Virus record (IMG/VR): IMGVR_UViG_3300048609_000070
Source: a virus
Strand: one strand, 5' to 3'
Length of the DNA: 64,000 bases
A program made the translations under genes and the position numbers. Of this stretch, positions 24,480-44,811 are shown piece after piece. A model generated the notes under the pieces. The model saw only the letters and a list, made by a program, of their open reading frames with translations. It did no database searches and was not told the origin of the DNA. How positions within the stretch are numbered: position 1 is the stretch's first letter; the number at the start of each line of letters is the position of its first letter.

Positions 24480-24790
24480 AGTCAACTTAAATTTTTGGCT
24501 GGTCATGATCTATTGTCCCCGCTTCCAGTACTCCCGGTCCCGCAATCTGATGGAGCAGTGGCGCTGTCCCAGGTCCTATACCTGTGTCGCAGCATCGTCC
24601 CTGTCTATGTTTCGCCGGGTCTCGTCCCTGTGTGTCCCGTATGTCACTGGTGGTCCCGTTATGGCGTCTTCAGCCCGCCGAGCGTACAGTCTAGTCCGAG
24701 AGCTCCTTTTAGTATGGGTTGTCCCACCGGTTGATGTCTCGGTTCGTCCCAGACCGAAGCCTTCAGTTTGTCCCTTACACGTCCCTGTCT
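24480..24790. repeat. GTCCC-motif array (about 12 copies at 10-30 nt irregular spacing) downstream of the Cas12-like gene
   Basis: GTCCC recurs (GTCCCCGC.., GTCCCGCAAT.., GTCCCAGG.., GTCCCTGTC.., GTCCCGTATG.. etc.). The plus strand is pyrimidine-rich. No convincing ORF. Confidence 0.6.
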
Positions 24791-27700
24791 CAACCTAAAC
24801 TTTGATAACTTTTTGCTTCGACTGCTTTCCAGAAGACCGCGGCTTGAACCCACACGCTCGGGTCGAAGAATGTTCCGGAGGGGTCACGGAAGAGGACCAT
24901 CTTGTTTTTCTCGTTGATTTTGACATCTATCTTTTTTGTAGCCATCGCCGTGTACGTCCCATTACCGTCCTTCTTGAAAAATTCAACAGCATCACTCTTG
25001 AAGTGTCCCTGCAGAATTTTTCCGAGCTCCAGGTTCAGTAGGTGTCCGTCTGTCTCGTATGCCACAGCGCGTACAGGATTTGCACTCCCTGTCAAATAAT
25101 TCATACCGTGATTTTGAGCAGCGTTGACGTCAACGTGGATCCGTGACCCGTCGCTTGTGACAAGGTATGGCCCTCCAGGAACTGGAATCAAATCCCGTCG
25201 CTTCAGCTGTAGCAAGTCTAGCTTAGCCTCTTTTACGAATGGTCGGAGCCAATGTCCTTGCGTTTGGATCGCATTTACTTCCTCGTCACTCTTTATTTCG
25301 TAGCATGCAATCCCTGGCGTTCTTGTCCCAGCGCTAAAGATTGAGGAGAAAGCAACGGGTGCTTTGCCAATGGCAAAGCCTTCGGCTTTGGCCCTTCGTT
25401 CGATTTCTTGTGCAATAGAGCGGTGACTCCATTGTGCAAGACGGACGTTTTCCTCAAGGTCCTGATCCTCGGTGATTCTATATCGTGTCAAGTCACCGAG
25501 GACGATAATATCCACAGGAGTATACGTATGACTCCAACTTTTATTTGAATAGGTATTTCCTTTTGCCGCCTCAATTATAAATGCTGTGAGCGTCTTGATC
25601 CGATCCATCTTCAAGTTCTGGATATGGACCAATAATCGAGATGCTACCACGCCTTGGGTAGACTTTTCCATCCGGCGAACTGGATAGTCAGGGCGAGAAT
25701 GCCGATCCCACGCTCTGATGAGATCTCGCGTTTTCTCCAGATAAGCAATCCGCCATATGGACTTTCCTCCAAGAGTCATCTTCTCCTGTCGCCAATCGTG
25801 AATATCCTTGGCGATGCGTGTTTCCTCCTCGAAATAGATTGGGCGCATGATTCGTTCCCAATTCTCGTGGGGGCAACCATATAGGATGCTCAACTCTCTA
25901 TGCACATCTTTATCGAGCTTTCCTCTCATCCCATTGAGGAGCTCTTTCCTTACTTCAGGATCTTGTGTCCCGTGCAATTGCCTTAAACCTGATAGTTTAT
26001 CGAGTTCCCTCCCAATGCGCCATAACCGCTCTTGCGCTTCCTTGCGTCCTTCGATCGCTTTCTCTGCGGGCATACGCAGCAAAAACGTCTGCTCATGGTG
26101 GATCTTGTGCCCTTCGACAGACCATAGCGGGTCTGTGCTTTTTTCTGCCCCGACCTCGAAAATTGAGCATGTGGCTGACACTCTAATGCCCAGGTGGACT
26201 GCCATGATTCGAATGCCAGGGACGATAGGAGATTTTTTCTCCGCAGATCTTGTAATTTTGCTCTTTGAAAGATACCTTGCAATGTCTCTGCGATCGACCG
26301 TAGGAATTTTTGTCTTGTGCTCCTCGGTCTCTACATTGACCGAGAGCATCAAGTAGGCCATGGCTCCGGGTCGTCCATCTCGGAGCTTCCAGGCACTTGT
26401 CGGATCGGACACGAATCGAGGTGATAAGATGAGAGACGCTCCTCCGGCAATGCTGACTTTTCGTTGGATATTGTCTTGCGATTCATACGATAGATACTGC
26501 TTTTTCTTGTCGTCCCACATTTTGAGCAGACGCAATTGGTATGTTGGTGCAATCTGGAAAAAGAATTTACGAATGCAGACCCCATCTGAATCCTTAGAAA
26601 ATAACGGCAGATCTACACAGAGTCCCTGTTCATTTTGTTTGAGCGTATAAGGCGGGTTGTTTCGATTTGAAAGTCCCGAAAATAGGGTGAATCTCGGATG
26701 GGTCTCTGCATCCGGAAAAGTGAGCATTGGGAGTTCTTTTGCTTCCTGAATCTTTTTTAATACCTTGTTTTTCTTTGCCCAATGAAAAACAGCATCCGGG
26801 TCGTCGAAGGCTTCTTTGGCGAGGTCAAGTAAGATGGTGGATCCGTGGTCCCCAGCTTGTACAATTCTTTCTCTTTGGTCCGTGATACCTTTAAGCTTTT
26901 TCCAATTTTTTATCTCTCGCTCAGTGATGAGATAGGCAGATTTTTCTGCCCAATTTCCAGCTCTTTTGATCTGTTCTTCCCTTTTCTGTTCAATACAGAT
27001 CAGAGTCTGCGAGTCCCTTTCGCTATACGGATTTCCTAATTTTTCCAGTTCTGCCTCTAGATCTTGTGTCCGTGCTGTGAGATTATGCCGCCAGCTTTCC
27101 CAGGAATTGAGATGTCCAACGGCGAGGGTGAAAGCCATACGCTCGTAGGCTTGCAGAGCTGTGGTCCCTAAAATGTCAAAGAGGAATGGATCAGCAAGTG
27201 GAAGCGCCCCGAGTGAACGGATCTCGCTCACCAGCGAATCCATTATCAATTTTTCTTTATTGGATGCAACGTACTTTGTTGCTGCATCTTTCCAGCCGGG
27301 ATCTCCTGTCTTGAACAGAGTCAGCCAATGTGCTTCCCTGCCGACTGAAGGTCCCATGAAAAGGGAATTATTCTTGATCTGATCTTCCAGGTTGGATTCA
27401 CTATCCATTATTCGCTGGAGGGTCCGAACGAGATTTGCCGCGTGAGATCCTCCTTGGGATTCTTTCTGCACGAGGAGGCCCTGGTAGCCTCGGACTTCAT
27501 CGGCAGATCCAGAGCCGCCCTCGCGGTAGGACTCGACATAATAAGGATAGAGCTCCTTTAATAAGGAGCAGCATCTATCAATATTTTTTACTTTGCGTTC
27601 CTTGAGCTTTGCCTGCAATCGGGACGTCCATTCGGAGCCCGGGACAGTCTCTTTTTCGAGCCGGACGTCATCCTGACGAATGGTCACGAGCATCTTTTCA

Positions 27701-27813
27701 TAGAAACGCACCATGTCGTTCACGATCTGATGCGTATACGCTAGAGCTCTTGCCCCATCAGTATTGGATTTTCTTGGAACGTGAAGTTTTAATCGTATAG
27801 CTCTTGTGTCCAC
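24790..27813 (-). CDS. Cas12b (C2c1)-like type V effector homolog, predicted nuclease-dead (GTG start)
   Basis: 1007 aa. RuvC-I region IMAVHLGIRVSATCSIFEV matches Cas12b ..SVDLG.R.SA..SVF.V but has His in place of the catalytic Asp. RuvC-II IIVLGDLTRY compared with Cas12b ILLEELSEY. Cas12b-like RLAQWSHRS. FSSIFSAGTRTPGIACYEI compared with FSSRFDARTGAPGIRC. RuvC-III HVDVNAAQNHG is retained. RBS GAGGGAG upstream of GTG. Confidence 0.75.
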   Translation of the reverse strand: MDTRAIRLKLHVPRKSNTDGARALAYTHQIVNDMVRFYEKMLVTIRQDDVRLEKETVPGSEWTSRLQAKLKERKVKNIDRCCSLLKELYPYYVESYREGGSGSADEVRGYQGLLVQKESQGGSHAANLVRTLQRIMDSESNLEDQIKNNSLFMGPSVGREAHWLTLFKTGDPGWKDAATKYVASNKEKLIMDSLVSEIRSLGALPLADPFLFDILGTTALQAYERMAFTLAVGHLNSWESWRHNLTARTQDLEAELEKLGNPYSERDSQTLICIEQKREEQIKRAGNWAEKSAYLITEREIKNWKKLKGITDQRERIVQAGDHGSTILLDLAKEAFDDPDAVFHWAKKNKVLKKIQEAKELPMLTFPDAETHPRFTLFSGLSNRNNPPYTLKQNEQGLCVDLPLFSKDSDGVCIRKFFFQIAPTYQLRLLKMWDDKKKQYLSYESQDNIQRKVSIAGGASLILSPRFVSDPTSAWKLRDGRPGAMAYLMLSVNVETEEHKTKIPTVDRRDIARYLSKSKITRSAEKKSPIVPGIRIMAVHLGIRVSATCSIFEVGAEKSTDPLWSVEGHKIHHEQTFLLRMPAEKAIEGRKEAQERLWRIGRELDKLSGLRQLHGTQDPEVRKELLNGMRGKLDKDVHRELSILYGCPHENWERIMRPIYFEEETRIAKDIHDWRQEKMTLGGKSIWRIAYLEKTRDLIRAWDRHSRPDYPVRRMEKSTQGVVASRLLVHIQNLKMDRIKTLTAFIIEAAKGNTYSNKSWSHTYTPVDIIVLGDLTRYRITEDQDLEENVRLAQWSHRSIAQEIERRAKAEGFAIGKAPVAFSSIFSAGTRTPGIACYEIKSDEEVNAIQTQGHWLRPFVKEAKLDLLQLKRRDLIPVPGGPYLVTSDGSRIHVDVNAAQNHGMNYLTGSANPVRAVAYETDGHLLNLELGKILQGHFKSDAVEFFKKDGNGTYTAMATKKIDVKINEKNKMVLFRDPSGTFFDPSVWVQAAVFWKAVEAKSYQSLG

Positions 27814-28618: not shown

Positions 28619-29395
28619 TCATGTGTTCCTCTCTGCTTGCATAGGGTCTCTTTGCATCCTCTCCAGCAGTCCGTAATATGCGGAGGCTAATCCACATTGG
28701 TCGCAAAGTTGAGTGAGTCCGACAGTCTCTATGATACTTTTTGTGCTTTCAAAAACACTCCCAATTTCCGTGCAGCTAGAGCATTCTCCGATTCTTATTT
28801 TTCCATTGACATCGATCATAGGAGAACACATTTTTCCAATTCTTTGTAATGTTCGGATCATAGTAACAAAATTCGCTTCCCGGAATTGCAATGCGAAAAG
28901 ATGAACGTTAGCGCAATGCGGAAAAACACGTTCACTTTTTGTATAGTTCTTTTTTGCTCGTCCTAAAAGTGTGATGCTAATCCCATCCTCGAAAAGTTGA
29001 GTGTTGGGGAGAGTCTCTAGCTTGAGATTTGCATGTATCACATGATAATTGGGGTAATATTTTGGGTGCGTCCTGATTTGCAAGCGTATGTTGGTAGTGG
29101 TCAGAAGATCCAACATATTGCGGTATTTTTCTTGGTCTGTATAGAACGAACCGTTACTCTGGATCATGATATCAGATTCAGGGAATACTTTACTGACGAT
29201 CTTGGCCCATGAAAAAAAGGAAGGGTGAAGTGTCGGTTCTCCACCTGTAATCTGGATTAAAATCGGTTTGACCTTCCGCAGCAATTTTAATGTAGCTGCA
29301 AAAGTCTTTTGCTCCATGTGCTCCCCGGAAGGATTTGCATCCTCCATGCAATGCGAGCAATTTTCAAGGCATCGGTTTGTAATTTTTACGAGCAT
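28619..29395 (-). CDS. radical SAM enzyme with C-terminal extra Cys cluster (twitch/SPASM-like)
   Basis: 258 aa. CxxxCxxC (CLENCSHC). GGEP motif (ITGGEPTLHP). C-terminal CSPM...GECSSCTEIG...CDQCG. Confidence 0.7.
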   Translation of the reverse strand: MLVKITNRCLENCSHCMEDANPSGEHMEQKTFAATLKLLRKVKPILIQITGGEPTLHPSFFSWAKIVSKVFPESDIMIQSNGSFYTDQEKYRNMLDLLTTTNIRLQIRTHPKYYPNYHVIHANLKLETLPNTQLFEDGISITLLGRAKKNYTKSERVFPHCANVHLFALQFREANFVTMIRTLQRIGKMCSPMIDVNGKIRIGECSSCTEIGSVFESTKSIIETVGLTQLCDQCGLASAYYGLLERMQRDPMQAERNT

Positions 29396-38856: not shown

Positions 38857-39540
38857 ATGAAAAAGGGCATTATTCCTACGTTCTTTTTATTTGTATTTTC
38901 TGACCTTATTCTTATTTTATTGGGTCTTACCATCTATTTCCGTGTCTCAGGATTTAGCCATATTGTCTGGGTCTCTTGTTTAGGCGTTCTTTTGGCGGCA
39001 ATTTTTTCAGCTTTTTATTTTTTTATTGTCGAGTATAACCGTCCCCCGTTATTTATAGACCATACGTTCAATATTGGCGTATGGGCTGACGATATTCTAG
39101 AACTAAACAAATCCGAAGTCAGAAATGAGTTTAGCTTTTGTATCAAGTTTTTTATCGAGAATTTTCCAAACTTATTAGAAGCTTCTTACGCAAGATCTGT
39201 GTTGGAAACTATCGTTACACCGGCAGTTCTTCAAGATGCTCTCAGTGGACTAAAATTAGAATGGAAAAGAAGATCGGTCAGCTTTCATGGCTGGGGAATG
39301 TACGTTACCGAAAAAACTGGATGCTACGATAATAAGTTTATTTTATTAACATGGCCGGGACAAGTTTCAAAGAGCGATATCTTTCATATGCTGGGACATC
39401 TTGTAGACCATTTGATTCTGGATAAAAATCCGGACAGGCACCATTTTGATACCCGCTGGTGGAGCCTACTGGAGATATTGCGAGACCGAGCTGAGGCTGC
39501 TTGGGAAAAGGTTCTCCCACGGACGTCGTTATCGGCATAG
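38857..39540 (+). CDS. hypothetical membrane protein
   Basis: 227 aa. Two N-terminal TM helices. Confidence 0.45.
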   Translation: MKKGIIPTFFLFVFSDLILILLGLTIYFRVSGFSHIVWVSCLGVLLAAIFSAFYFFIVEYNRPPLFIDHTFNIGVWADDILELNKSEVRNEFSFCIKFFIENFPNLLEASYARSVLETIVTPAVLQDALSGLKLEWKRRSVSFHGWGMYVTEKTGCYDNKFILLTWPGQVSKSDIFHMLGHLVDHLILDKNPDRHHFDTRWWSLLEILRDRAEAAWEKVLPRTSLSA

Positions 39541-41390
39541 GGGCTGACGGGTTCATCCCGTCAGTCCCCTGCCACACCACCGGACATGCGGGTCCGCATC
39601 CGGCGGTTCGGTAGGTTGAGGTTATGCCGCAAGCCTCGGTACTCCTTGTCGGTCGTAGTAGCTCGTCGGCAGCGCAGTGTTCAACAGCTTCGCGGAATTG
39701 CACCACCAGCGGCGTGAGTTCGCGGCCACCCGCCGGGCGGCCTGGTCATTCGCTCCAAGCCGCTTCATCTCCCGGTAGATGGTCTTCCCTCGTATCCACT
39801 GTTTGAGCTGTATCATCCGCAGACGATGGCGTATCCATTCGTCGAGATTCATGAAGATGCCAGGCGTCTCGGCCAGGCGGAAATACCCTTTCCACCCAAG
39901 CAGGTAAGCCCGTAGCTCCGCGAACACCCGATTCATGCTCCGCCCTCGACTCCGGGTCGTGATGTCCCGGACCCGCTGCTTCATCGCTTCAAGGGCTTTT
40001 GGCGCCACGCGCCGCCGGACGACCTTTCCCGGGGCTACCCAGAAGCTGTACCCCAGGAACTTCCTTTCCCACGGTCGTGCCACCGCGCTCTTCATCTCGT
40101 TGACTCGCAGCCGTAGTCGCGCGTACAAGTCCCGAAGGGCCCGCATCACACGCTCGCCAGCTCGCTGCGACCCAACGTACACGTTGCAGTCATCAGCGTA
40201 GCGGACAAACGCATGCCCACGCTTCTCCAGCTCCTTATCCACTTCGTCGAGGAGCACGTTCGCCAACAGCGGTGAGAGAGGGCCGCCCTGCGGCGTCCCC
40301 TCGTACCGCTCCGTTGCCACCCCTCCCGCCATGATGCCGGCTTCGAGGTAGCGCCGGATGAGCCCCAGCATCCGCCTGTCTCCAATGCGCTTCTCCAGCC
40401 TCCCCATCAGCACGTCGTGGTTGACCCGGTCGAAGAACCGCTCCAGGTCCACGTCCACCACCACCCGCCTCCCTTCCTGGACATACCGCTGCGCTTCGCA
40501 GACCGCGTCGTGTGCGCTATGCCCGGGCCGAAAGCCGTGGCTGTGCTTCGAGAAGGTCGGGTCGAACATCGGTTGCAGGACCTGCAGGATGCTCTGCTGG
40601 ATGAACCGGTCGAGCACGGTTGGGATGCCAAGCTTTCGCACCCCGCCCCCGCTCTTCGGTATCTCCGCTTCCCGCACCGGTTTCGGCTGGTAGGTGCCTT
40701 CGAGCAGCTGCGCTCGAGTCGCCTCCCAGTGTTCAATCAGGTGCTTCGGCAGCTCGTCGACGGTCATCCCGTCCACACCGGGGCTGCCCTTGTTCTGCCG
40801 TACCCGCTTCAACGCCGCCTTGGCATTGCCGCGCTCGACCACCCGTTCCATCAGGTGGTCGATTCCTGAGCGCTCATCTCCGTTCGCCGCCGTCGGGGTT
40901 TCGCCGCTCCGTTGGGCCCTCGGGGCTTCACCCCTGCCTCCCAGCGGTAGCTCCAGCTGATTGGACTTCTGGCGCCTGACCCTTCCGAGACTCACGGTTG
41001 CCTCGCTCTCCCTTCCGTTCGGCCCTTCGCCGTTGCCGGCTACTATGGCCTCTGCTGACTTCTCGGTCCGGCTTTGTGCCGTCGCCCTTTCAGGCGTGGG
41101 CCGAGATCTCCTCAGGTAAGGGTTCATGGACTTCGCCGCACAGCCGCCGGATTTACGTCGTCTGACTCTTGGTCGCGAGGGCTTCGCGGTCCTTTGCCCG
41201 CTCGCCCTTGTCGACGCCGCCTTGTATCCGGTTCTTGTTCATCGGCTCGCGGCTTCACTACCCGCTTCTTTCAGCGCCGGCCTCGCGGCCGGACCGGTCT
41301 CCCGGCTTGCCGCCTTGCGGTTCGTGTGGGTCGCTGCGACCAACTCCCCAGGGGACTTTCACCCCCTGTCCATTCCCATGCTGAGCACAC
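39538..41390 (-). mobile_element. bacterial group II intron (about 1.85 kb); boundaries approximate
   Basis: 5' end GUGUGCUCAGCAUGG... at RC of about 41390. Domain V-like hairpin CCGCCGGATGCGGACCCGCATGTCCGGTGG and domain VI GGGGACTGACGGGATGAACCCGTCAGCCCC near 39541-39620. IEP in domain IV. GC about 62% against a flank of about 38%. Confidence 0.8.
39622..41127 (-). CDS. ltrA: group II intron-encoded reverse transcriptase/maturase
   Basis: 501 aa. RT motifs: GIPTVLDRFIQQS. GFRPG.SAHDA. YADD in FVRYADDCNVYVG. Maturase X domain. Confidence 0.9.
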   Translation of the reverse strand: MNPYLRRSRPTPERATAQSRTEKSAEAIVAGNGEGPNGRESEATVSLGRVRRQKSNQLELPLGGRGEAPRAQRSGETPTAANGDERSGIDHLMERVVERGNAKAALKRVRQNKGSPGVDGMTVDELPKHLIEHWEATRAQLLEGTYQPKPVREAEIPKSGGGVRKLGIPTVLDRFIQQSILQVLQPMFDPTFSKHSHGFRPGHSAHDAVCEAQRYVQEGRRVVVDVDLERFFDRVNHDVLMGRLEKRIGDRRMLGLIRRYLEAGIMAGGVATERYEGTPQGGPLSPLLANVLLDEVDKELEKRGHAFVRYADDCNVYVGSQRAGERVMRALRDLYARLRLRVNEMKSAVARPWERKFLGYSFWVAPGKVVRRRVAPKALEAMKQRVRDITTRSRGRSMNRVFAELRAYLLGWKGYFRLAETPGIFMNLDEWIRHRLRMIQLKQWIRGKTIYREMKRLGANDQAARRVAANSRRWWCNSAKLLNTALPTSYYDRQGVPRLAA

Positions 41391-41534
41391 AAAGAATTAG
41401 GGCCGGTCTGGCTAACCGGCCCTTTCCAGGCGCTGTGGCAACTTTTCTCGTTATGTTGCCCTACAGGATAGGCAAAGAGGATCTAGATGTCAAGAAGAAT
41501 TTTCTGAAAATTTTTTATTAGATCTTTCAATTAC

Positions 41535-41774
41535 TTACCAGTCAAAAGAATCAGATCGTGTGGAGTACCTGCTTTCTCCCCACGAAACAGATTTGGCGCA
41601 CCACACGTTGTATCTCGTGCAAGCTACTGAAGTTATTACTGCTTTTTCGTGTTTTTTTCTTGAACGTGAAGTGGGTTCGCATCCGTCCAATGCTCCAGTA
41701 CTTGAACGGGGAAATGCAAAGTAGAGCAGATCCGCGAGAACCCCACGTGCTTGTAAACACATCATATTTTTCAC
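41535..41774 (-). CDS. small Cys-containing protein, tandem paralog 1 (..ACTRY..CAKS.S.G.S.Y..RSDSFDW)
   Basis: 79 aa. Shares a conserved C-terminus with the adjacent 78 aa ORF despite diverged DNA. Confidence 0.4.
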   Translation of the reverse strand: MKNMMCLQARGVLADLLYFAFPRSSTGALDGCEPTSRSRKKHEKAVITSVACTRYNVWCAKSVSWGESRYSTRSDSFDW

Positions 41775-42007
41775 CAGTCAAAGGAATCAGACCGAGAGAA
41801 ATAACCGCTTTTCCCCCGAGAGCCAGACTTTGCACAATGTATCTCGTATTTTGTACAAGCTCCTGAATATCTTATAGATTTTTCTTGTTGTTTTCTTGAA
41901 AACGACTTGATTCCTGAAAGTGTTTGTGAAAACAATGAATTAGCGCGTTGTTGTGTACGTGAATGGGAAGATCCAAGGTAGATAAAATTTGATTGTAAAT
42001 ACCGCAC
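41771..42007 (-). CDS. small Cys-containing protein, tandem paralog 2
   Basis: 78 aa. The about 236-bp repeat unit is duplicated in tandem. Confidence 0.4.
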   Translation of the reverse strand: MRYLQSNFIYLGSSHSRTQQRANSLFSQTLSGIKSFSRKQQEKSIRYSGACTKYEIHCAKSGSRGKSGYFSRSDSFDW

Positions 42008-42018
42008 GTTACTCTCCT

Positions 42019-42056
42019 AAAAAAGAAGGCCGTTCTTGATGTCAGAAACGGCCTTC
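42019..42056 (-). terminator. rho-independent terminator (minus strand)
   Basis: GAAGGCCGTT...AACGGCCTTC stem followed on the minus strand by U6 (plus-strand A6 at 42019-42024). Lies 3' of 42078..42503. Confidence 0.6.
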
Positions 42057-42077
42057 TACGCGGGATAGCAGATCGTC

Positions 42078-42503
42078 CTACTTCGGCTCCAGCGGGAGCT
42101 CGTGACGCCATTCCAGCCAGTCACAGATGGACTCTAGCGAAACCCGGACGACTGCCTCGGGGGGATACGGTTCGACCTCGCGGAACTCGCCGTCCCGGAG
42201 GGAGGAGTGAAACCGCCCGGTGTCCGCAATCCAGGCAGCTTGAGTCAGATACACCGTTTTCTCGTCCAGGCCAACAACCTTTCCTGTGTAGTAGTTGTTT
42301 ATGCCTCGGATGAAGTAGTTCTTTCCGATGTCAAAATTCATGAACGTCTCTGCCATGGTTGTTTCTCCTTGTGGGATTAATACTGCGTCTTTACAAAAAC
42401 TCCCGTGATTGGGGGTTTGGCTCCAAGGATTAGGATTATATTGTATTACAACTTCACGGTACTCCCAGCTACGTTTGTCCTTAGACATTTTTTCCATTCT
42501 CAA
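42078..42503 (-). CDS. hypothetical protein
   Basis: 141 aa ORF followed by a terminator. Confidence 0.45.
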   Translation of the reverse strand: MRMEKMSKDKRSWEYREVVIQYNPNPWSQTPNHGSFCKDAVLIPQGETTMAETFMNFDIGKNYFIRGINNYYTGKVVGLDEKTVYLTQAAWIADTGRFHSSLRDGEFREVEPYPPEAVVRVSLESICDWLEWRHELPLEPK

Positions 42504-43770: not shown

Positions 43771-44811
43771 CTAGGCTAGGTTTGCTAGTGGCTTACCTAA
43801 CTTCAAAGGCGTTTGATGTCCCAAACGGAGTATGTTTTGAGCCGCATTAATATCGCGACTGTGAGTTTGCCCACAACTCTCACAAGTCCATACTCTTACG
43901 GAAAGGTCTGTCAGATCCTTCGGCCCCGACCTTTCCAGGCATTGACCACACGTTTGCGTAGTATATGCTTCGCTGACCAAGTGGAAGGCACCTTGCCGTC
44001 TACTGACCTTATATTCAAGGAGCCTTATCAGTCCTCGGTAAGCAGTATCATTGGTAGATTTACCACTTTGCAACTTCAAATCACCAACATAGATTTCTTG
44101 GTAAGTGCTGGCTAACTTGGTGGATATCTTATGGAGGTTATCCTGACGTTGACGCTGAACCTTACGAGCAAGATGCTTATGTTGCTTAGACTTTCTAAAC
44201 CGTTGGAGATTACCTAGCTTGACTACGCTTTTTCGAAAGCATTTAGGATTGTCAAAGACTTCTCCGTTAGAAGATACAGCAATACTGTTTAGTCCAAGGT
44301 CGATACCTACATGCACAGAGATTAGTGCTTTGGGTAGCAACTCAACCTCGCAAACCAATGTCAAATACCAATCTCCACAAGCATCTTCTACGAAGCTCCC
44401 TGTACATACTTTTCCTTCTAGTTCACGGGATTTGAAGAATTTGAACCAAGTACCATTGAACTTTACTTTATTATCTTTGACCTTGATAGAAATTGCCTTG
44501 AAAGGAATCCATCCTAAAGACTTCCTTGTGCGCCACTTTAGTTTACGACGGCATGTTTGTTTGCGAGATTTAGCATAAGTTTCATCGATTGCCTGTATAG
44601 TAGTAGCAGGTATCTTTAGAAGTTTACAGGAACCAGCAGTCAGGTTGTTCAAGTCAAATCCGGTTAGGAATTTATAGTGAGATTTAATCGCCTTACAGGA
44701 AGTTTCGTTGTCGTAGTTCCAGACAAAGTTAACTTTGGAAGCAGCTACGCGCAAGTGGCGCAGCTTGGAACGCGAAAGTTTGAACTTGTAAGTCGTATAC
44801 ATAACGTTCAC
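43771..44811 (-). CDS. tnpB: IS200/IS605-family TnpB homolog with non-canonical RuvC-II (GDL in place of EDL)
   Basis: 346 aa. RuvC-I VGIDLGL. RuvC-II position reads EIYVGDLKL. Zn finger CGQC...CESCG. RuvC-III SRDINAAQNIL. Hairpin CCCCGCCTTGAAAGACGGGG about 20 bp downstream of the stop. Confidence 0.8.
   Translation of the reverse strand: MNVMYTTYKFKLSRSKLRHLRVAASKVNFVWNYDNETSCKAIKSHYKFLTGFDLNNLTAGSCKLLKIPATTIQAIDETYAKSRKQTCRRKLKWRTRKSLGWIPFKAISIKVKDNKVKFNGTWFKFFKSRELEGKVCTGSFVEDACGDWYLTLVCEVELLPKALISVHVGIDLGLNSIAVSSNGEVFDNPKCFRKSVVKLGNLQRFRKSKQHKHLARKVQRQRQDNLHKISTKLASTYQEIYVGDLKLQSGKSTNDTAYRGLIRLLEYKVSRRQGAFHLVSEAYTTQTCGQCLERSGPKDLTDLSVRVWTCESCGQTHSRDINAAQNILRLGHQTPLKLGKPLANLA

Follow-up and report, generated by a model that had tools for sequence, protein, structure and literature searches.

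The window analysed here, a stretch of 64,000 nucleotides from the IMG/VR virus record IMGVR_UViG_3300048609_000070, carries on its minus strand a complete group II intron of class C (group IIC), 1,860 nt in length. The intron encodes a reverse transcriptase (RT)/maturase, starts a few nucleotides past a GC-rich hairpin and ends within the last codons of an open reading frame (ORF) on the plus strand (Table 1). An Rfam scan detected a single copy of the intron in the window.

On the minus strand of the region 39300-41700, the GC-rich block opened with GUGUGCUCAGCAUGGG, and the GUGUG of the intron 5′ end was found at 41390. The 3′ end was placed at 39531, ...CCUAUGCCGAU, by alignment to the Rfam model RF00029. 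We searched metagenome contigs of the Joint Genome Institute (JGI) with the opposite-strand ORF and recovered a 1,834-bp contig from a different sample (L124), in which the protein was 99% identical and the flanks were about 95% identical at the nucleotide level. This contig has the uninterrupted site. It reads GGTTCTCCCACGGACGTCGTT/AAAGAATTAGGGCCGGTCTGGCTAACCGGCC, the slash marking the junction, so that window positions 39510-39530 are fused to 41391 onward, and no target duplication accompanied the insertion. The comparison left an ambiguity of 1 nt at the boundary, which was settled through the GUGYG...AY consensus. The 3′ terminus CCCCUAU[GC]CCGAU was common to 57 related introns, and the nearest relatives were 1,861 nt long. 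The preliminary description of this locus had placed a minus-strand group II intron with a typical 5′ GUGUG at 39538-41440. The strand and the GUGUG were correct, and matches to RF02001, RF01998 and RF00029 bore out the intron itself, but the limits had to be moved, as that interval included 50 nt of the 5′ exon (41391-41440) and stopped 7 nt short of the 3′ end.

The same description took the intron 3′ end to coincide with the TAG stop of the opposite ORF. Instead, this TAG (39538-39540) lies inside the intron, being derived from its domain VI, and the intron reaches 7 nt further into the ORF. The insertion thus falls within the last three codons of the gene, on the other strand. In L124 the protein ends in PRTSLKN before the TAG, whereas in the window it ends in PRTSLSA. 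Judging from L124, the original stop codon is the TAG now at 41398-41400, abutting the hairpin. On the plus strand the hairpin directly follows this original stop and is itself followed by TTTCC (TTTTCC in L124). The order of stop codon, hairpin and TTTTCC in L124 is that of a gene with an intrinsic terminator, and the hairpin looks like the terminator of this gene as well. The gene is now 1.86 kb away from it. A consensus scan found no plus-strand terminator-like sites inside the intron, so that transcription of the gene would be expected to continue into the intron, antisense to it.

Table 1. Coordinates of the intron, its target and the adjoining gene in the window. Slashes in the sequences mark junctions; EBS, exon-binding site; IBS, intron-binding site.
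Feature	Position	Strand	Remarks
Group IIC intron	39531..41390	-	5′ GUGUG to 3′ GAU; boundaries from the empty-site contig L124
Occupied junctions			...CCCTAATTCTTT/GTGTGCTCAG... and ...CTATGCCGAT/AACGACGTCC...
Empty or spliced junction			...CCCTAATTCTTT/AACGACGTCC...
Predicted splice point of the intron RNA			...CUAAUUCUUU/AACGACGU...
Insertion target sequence			hairpin plus TAATTCTTT/A
5′-exon stem-loop GGGCCGGTCTGGCTAACCGGCCC	41400..41422	both	7-bp all-GC stem GGGCCGG/CCGGCCC (slash separates the two arms), 9-nt loop; extendable to 41399-41423; target motif, terminator-like in both orientations
IBS1, CUUU	41391..41394	-	last 4 nt of the 5′ exon, 9 nt after the stem; complementary to EBS1
EBS1, AAAG	41192..41195	-	intron nt 196-199; loop of the hairpin GCGGGC-AAAGGA-CCGC
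Putative IBS3, A	39530..39530	-	first 3′-exon nucleotide, from the boundary
Sigma-70-like promoter match	41465..41493	-	TTGACA-17-TATCCT; consensus scan; same sequence in L124
Conserved domain I region of the ribozyme	41122..41292	-	RF02001, 114.4 bits
Conserved ribozyme region upstream of domain IV	41022..41102	-	RF01998, 47.8 bits
Domain V, about 30-32 nt	39576..39607	-	CGC triad, 2-nt bulge, shortened distal stem, GACC loop
Domain VI	39533..39574	-	bulged UA; predicted branch-point A at 39538, 8 nt from the 3′ end
Intron-encoded RT/maturase, 457 aa	39622..40995	-	GTG start at 40995; RVT_1 and GIIM; YADD motif
Opposite-strand ORF, 227 aa	38857..39540	+	no family match; last 10 nt, including the TAG, are antisense intron sequence

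Ribozyme and intron-encoded protein

The ribozyme was searched with Rfam models at their curated gathering thresholds and then in a permissive local search, and only the latter detected domains V and VI (RF00029, 39608-39531, 35.8 bits, E 8e-5). The catalytic triad of domain V is CGC (39605-39603), with a G.U wobble at its middle position, and the domain reads CCGC where RF00029 has GAGC. Its distal stem and loop carry a 4-nt deletion relative to the RF00029 consensus, giving 30-32 nt instead of 34. Domains V and VI together were predicted to fold with -51.3 kcal/mol (z = -6.05). Group IIC introns are small; in their domain V, CGC replaces the AGC triad and the distal stem has 2 bp fewer than its IIA and IIB counterparts; they have an 11-nt epsilon-prime bulge with a conserved AGGAA, an EBS1-IBS1 pairing of 3-4 bp and no EBS2, with a terminator stem-loop at the position of IBS2 (PMC1702495). 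Their proteins lack an endonuclease domain (PMC4424553).

The intron protein is read here from the GTG at 40995, as for most relatives; ATG 41127 (501 aa, the JGI call) and ATG 40851 (409 aa) are other possible starts. RVT_1 (156-361) and GIIM (380-457) were the only Pfam domains in the protein. Pfam detected no HNH-type endonuclease domain, and just 44 residues follow GIIM. The RT/maturase proposed in the preliminary description was supported by these two domains and by the NCBIfam equivalog for group II RT/maturases, TIGR04416, at 402.8 bits. For classification, the protein was compared with all PDB sequences using phmmer. The best match was the GsI-IIC RT, at 476 bits over the full length. 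It was followed by the group II intron RT 7uim (331 bits), which is listed in the PDB table with neither organism nor class and which we take to be the E. rectale IIC protein, and by the RT-domain fragments 5hhl and 5hhj (272-275 bits). The maturase/RT 6me0, presumably the IIB protein T.el4h, scored 131 bits, and the IIA protein LtrA 127 bits. By these PDB scores the protein clearly groups with class C. Of the two outcomes that, according to the preliminary description, would refute its reading (no covariance-model hit for domains V/VI and a protein phylogeny inconsistent with class C), neither was borne out by the RF00029 match and the protein scores.

The protein gene runs for 457 codons without interruption and keeps YADD. 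Compared with 18 relatives, the protein had two private changes at otherwise invariant positions, R159H and G350R, within a family range of 1-9. Judged by its sequence, the intron element looks functional.

Target hairpin and exon recognition

The hairpin upstream of the intron occurs once in the window, where a chance occurrence is not expected. A consensus scan recorded it as terminator-like on the minus strand, on which it is followed by UAAUUCUUU and then by the intron. The preliminary description had already pointed to this GC-rich hairpin, at plus 41399-41421, one position away from its true place at 41400-41422. The insertion point lies 9 nt past the 7-bp stem, inside the range of 3-11 nt after the stem reported for B.h.I1 (PMC1702495). 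The 45 nt upstream of the intron fold with -21.0 kcal/mol, in the top 0.19% of all 45-mers of the window.

Relatives were gathered from plasmids, IMG/VR and GTDB genomes, and their 5′ ends were located by nhmmer. A hairpin of at least 6 bp ended 0-10 nt before the insertion in 63 of the 72 non-redundant relatives, most commonly at a distance of 5-7 nt. Their upstream 45 nt (n=72) had a mean folding energy of -21.3 kcal/mol, whereas 45-mers taken as controls from the same loci averaged -12.0 kcal/mol (Mann-Whitney p 5e-27), and the last 10 nt contained 6.3 T on average, compared with 1.9 in controls. Terminator targeting is thus a property of the whole clade, and the hairpin does represent the hallmark of class C introns that the preliminary description saw in it.

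In a Roseateles metagenome-assembled genome (MAG; L109, about 1810-1870), a related class C intron starts right after the 3′ end of another copy (...CCCCUAUGCCGAU). This tandem insertion appears to have used the domain VI hairpin of the first intron as the stem-loop target of the second. In a Deltaproteobacteria MAG (L044, 1895-2030), about 60 nt separate the intron from an upstream tRNA gene (Rfam tRNA, 53 bits), and the intron follows the terminator-like hairpin of that gene.

To locate EBS1, we aligned 76 non-redundant 5′ ribozyme halves and compared blocks of four columns with the last 4 nt of the exons. The best-pairing block fell in the loop of a conserved hairpin. In the window, this EBS1 forms four Watson-Crick pairs with IBS1 (AAAG/CUUU). 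Across 74 introns, 260 of 296 possible pairs were formed, compared with 160 +/- 7 when exons were shuffled among introns, and none of 5,000 shuffles reached as high a count. Complements of at least 6 nt resembling an EBS2 numbered 7 in intron nt 1-400, where 3.1 were expected (p 0.06); they were GC-rich and at about chance level. None of the complements in these 400 nt lay in a plausible domain I loop, although the method used is unable to prove that an EBS2 is absent.

The promoter match lies about 70 nt upstream of the intron and is a possible source of read-through transcription into it. Within 41391-41493 (minus strand), a small hairpin GGCAAC...GUUGCC is located between the promoter match and the terminator-like hairpin, and its sequence is identical in L124. 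One possibility is that a short RNA of about 70 nt is made from this region and that the intron targeted its terminator.

Origin, insertion and competing explanations

The GC content of the intron is 64.2%, whereas the 3-kb flanks have 39-42% and the remainder of the window has 43.4%. At third codon positions (GC3) the intron protein gene reaches 78.8%, while host ORFs range between 30 and 61%. The preliminary description had estimated the contrast as about 62% against about 38%, and these measurements agree with it. Its view of the intron as a recent arrival also held. The unameliorated composition and the empty site, in a genome that shares about 95% identity, support the view that the intron was acquired recently from a GC-rich lineage.

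The same family includes four close copies in metagenome contigs (L126 with 89.7% nucleotide identity and L127-L129 with 86.5%), which are found after hairpins in flanks of 60-73% GC. One of these adjoins an IS91 transposase and an integrase. The best named genomes were the Deltaproteobacteria MAG JACRCY010000503 (the L044 of the tRNA-associated insertion; 81% protein identity), followed by Archangium and by Polyangiales and Myxococcales MAGs, with protein identity down to 57% among named genomes. Plasmids of S. meliloti and P. putida (pKF715A) carry more distant copies, immediately downstream of hairpin-plus-T-run motifs. Family copies share the 5′ end GUGYGCCCAGCAUGG and the 3′ end CCCCUAUGCCGAU with the window intron, agree with it in length (1,861 nt), and all follow hairpins. 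Unlike these copies from GC-rich DNA, the window copy lies in DNA of about 40% GC among phage-like genes.

Compared with characterised systems, the intron resembles B.h.I1 of Bacillus halodurans, GsI-IIC of Geobacillus stearothermophilus and the IIC intron of Eubacterium rectale in its CGC triad and short distal domain V stem. It further shares with them the 4-bp EBS1-IBS1 pairing, the 5′-exon stem-loop at the IBS2 position, an insertion point 9 nt past the stem, an RT/maturase lacking an endonuclease domain and a size of about 1.86 kb. However, in sequence it is no more than a distant relative of these Firmicutes introns, and its epsilon-prime bulge has AAGAA instead of AGGAA. In addition, the window intron lies opposite the gene that the hairpin follows and clips the last codons of that gene instead of sitting harmlessly downstream.

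We consider it highly probable (roughly 0.93) that this is an intact class C retroelement that came from a GC-rich lineage into a low-GC genome by the usual class C route. We infer the manner of insertion, the present splicing and mobility, the donor taxon and the source of intron transcription. The intron RNA-protein particle would recognise the DNA stem-loop by its shape. EBS1 (AAAG) would then pair with the CTTT lying 9 nt after the stem, and the intron would reverse-splice into that strand. As the protein has no endonuclease domain, the DNA copy of the intron would rely on a primer supplied by the host, probably at a replication fork. The stem-loop target is situated between two convergent transcription units, directly after the original stop codon of the plus-strand gene, so that the intron, entering on the other strand, landed in the last three codons of that gene.

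Several observations weigh against this reading. The minus-strand tail past the hairpin is a weak T-run. No EBS3 covarying with the first base of the 3′ exon was found, the best column reaching 58% Watson-Crick pairs with an invariant A, and the 3′ exon begins with A in the window, while T is commonest in relatives. The RF00029 score of domains V and VI is below the Rfam gathering score of 40. Four of five scanned relatives scored 33-41.5 bits, and the low score of the lineage is due to the class C domain V being 4 nt shorter than the model. The epsilon-prime motif is AAGAA (CUGAAAGAAGCG; the GAAAGAAG version) where AGGAA is canonical. The closest subclade has AAGAA or AAGCA and more distant relatives AGGAA; the motif region falls within the RF02001 match, the consensus of which includes GAAGGAA. 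Finally, the window intron departs from its family at 5 of the 110 highly conserved columns of the 5′ ribozyme half (family median 1), and reduced ribozyme activity is therefore possible. Among close relatives, 3-12 columns deviated.

The ribozyme deviations and the sub-threshold domains V and VI, together with the single copy in the window and the substitutions R159H and G350R at otherwise invariant protein positions, could also indicate a dead copy, that is, a class C intron that no longer splices or moves and is decaying in a foreign host. However, two private changes are typical of the family, the ORF is intact with YADD and all other invariant residues kept, and two close relatives deviate at more ribozyme columns (L045 at 7 and L003 at 12). 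Domains V and VI fold strongly (z = -6), EBS1 matches IBS1 perfectly and the GC content has undergone no amelioration. A dead copy is thus improbable in our view. The abrupt step from 64% to about 40% GC in a metagenome contig would suit a chimera in which a GC-rich intron was misjoined into a low-GC contig, but the GC-rich block is bounded exactly by canonical intron termini, and the flanks adjoin each other with base precision in an independent contig from a different sample. A misjoin would also not give an insertion matched to its target, as seen in the complementarity of EBS1 to the 4 nt just upstream. A chimera was rejected on these grounds as very unlikely.

Membership of another group II class that also lacks an endonuclease domain (D, E or F, for example), with the hairpin nearby by coincidence, was suggested by the first nucleotide search, which matched many Sinorhizobium and E. 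coli plasmids that also hold non-C introns. It is effectively refuted by the IIC-specific CGC triad and short distal stem of domain V, by protein bit scores 3.5-fold higher against IIC than against IIA/IIB RTs and by the clade-wide preference for hairpins, the Sinorhizobium and Pseudomonas relatives themselves sitting directly after terminators; the chance that it is correct is minimal. Equally implausible is that it belongs to the IIC-attC introns, a sublineage directed at the attC sites of integrons and not at terminators. Group IIC-attC introns such as S.ma.I2 have the same class C type of ribozyme and protein and recognise a DNA stem-loop, and the window intron does adjoin an inverted repeat. 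The target, however, is a short terminator-like hairpin outside any integron context, 23 nt long, with a perfect 7-bp GC stem, a 9-nt loop and a T-rich tail, and it adjoins a stop codon in the space between convergent genes. The scanned neighbouring ORFs contained no integrase domain, and relatives follow classical hairpin-plus-T-run terminators. Targeting of attC was rejected accordingly.

The intact class C intron thus belongs to a common and well-described bacterial type, of which it is a clean example and not a new kind. Since roughly every second bacterial group II intron is of class C (PMC7306698), one more copy leaves knowledge of them unchanged. The locus nevertheless provides an unusually clean pair of one occupied and one empty site, the two genomes sharing about 95% identity, with a precise insertion at a hairpin and a perfect 4-bp EBS1-IBS1 match. 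It also indicates that a hairpin shared by convergent units is usable from the "wrong" side, and therefore that the strategy of inserting after terminators can clip the end of the opposite gene and part it from its terminator, the loss to the gene being small here. Moreover, the intron has passed from GC-rich DNA into a phage-like genome of much lower GC, a setting where group II introns are rare.

Host replicon and neighbouring genes

The replicon is phage-like in gene content. Its nucleic-acid genes include an RNA ligase, a polynucleotide kinase, two RlaP nucleotidyltransferases, a DnaG-like primase, a thymidylate kinase and a nucleoside deoxyribosyltransferase-like gene, and there are Dam and HsdM methylases and genes of the dTDP-rhamnose pathway. 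Defence or counter-defence genes are represented by an Apyc1-like metallo-beta-lactamase, a viperin-like radical SAM protein, TnpB and Cas12b, and proteins without known function by DUF7873, DUF5661 and DUF5662. Nearly all large ORFs are on one strand. Identities were 44-49% between the DUF7873 protein and proteins of Rhizobium phages of 100-207 kb, about 42% between the RNA ligase and those of cyanophages, and 53% for the nearest RmlB homologues. The flank had no nucleotide match in phage records, and no relatives of the 227-aa ORF or of the DUF7873 protein were found in IMG/VR. Essentially no phage matches were obtained for the 1,054-aa and 470-aa ORFs, and PHROGs identified no structural proteins.

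It is possible, though we hold it with considerable doubt, that the host is a large low-GC phage or phage-like extrachromosomal element and that the intron jumped into it from a high-GC (Myxococcota-like) host chromosome during co-residence. The replicon is recorded as 136.5 kb, which bears on this question. A related RT was present at E 1e-20 or better in 36 of 50,697 phage records, and a 2012 review knew of no group II intron in an active phage (PMC3429520). If such a capture did take place, the window would hold a rare class C intron in a phage. The intron would then serve as a natural marker of host linkage, and the locus would record a phage-mediated transfer between genomes that differ by more than 20 points in GC.

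A second presence/absence polymorphism was found about 1 kb from the intron. The segment 37429-38492, with a weakly DHH-like ORF of 346 aa (37465-38505, plus strand), is missing from L124 (about 95% identity) and from another contig, L125 (about 88%), both of which join 37428/37450 to about 38493/38501. On the other side of the intron, between its 5′ exon and the upstream gene, the region 41530-41900 contains two copies of a unit of about 135-240 nt, 236 nt apart and 71% identical. L124 has a single copy, as window positions 41771-42019 are missing there. The repeat region had no Rfam match; a non-coding RNA, a promoter module and a mobile miniature element are candidates for the unit. Further upstream, an ORF of 141 aa without a family match (42078-42503, minus strand) is 97% conserved in L124 and has a strong terminator hairpin at 42024-42057. 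Its 3′ half has about 57% GC and its overall GC3 is 61%; this region may be another foreign fragment.

A TnpB/IS605 OrfB-type ORF (43771-44811, minus strand), with Cas12f1-like TNB and OrfB_IS605 domains, is located 2.4 kb from the intron. A full-length Cas12b/C2c1 effector (24790-27813, minus strand) was recognised by PADLOC at 432 bits and by Pfam through its RuvC-like, helical and Nuc-II domains. CRISPR arrays were not detected around it (22.5-30.5 kb), and the scanned neighbours included no cas1 or cas2. The radical SAM protein at 28619-29395 (minus strand) has weak similarity to viperins (pVip), and the metallo-beta-lactamase-fold protein at 33661-34374 (plus strand) has sub-threshold similarity to the anti-Pycsar nuclease Apyc1. 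Together, these two genes suggest a defence or counter-defence cluster. An ORF of 835 aa (30392-32899, minus strand) matched the Pfam families MVP_shoulder (70.5 bits) and Vault_3 (38.7 bits), which is unusual in a prokaryotic or viral context.

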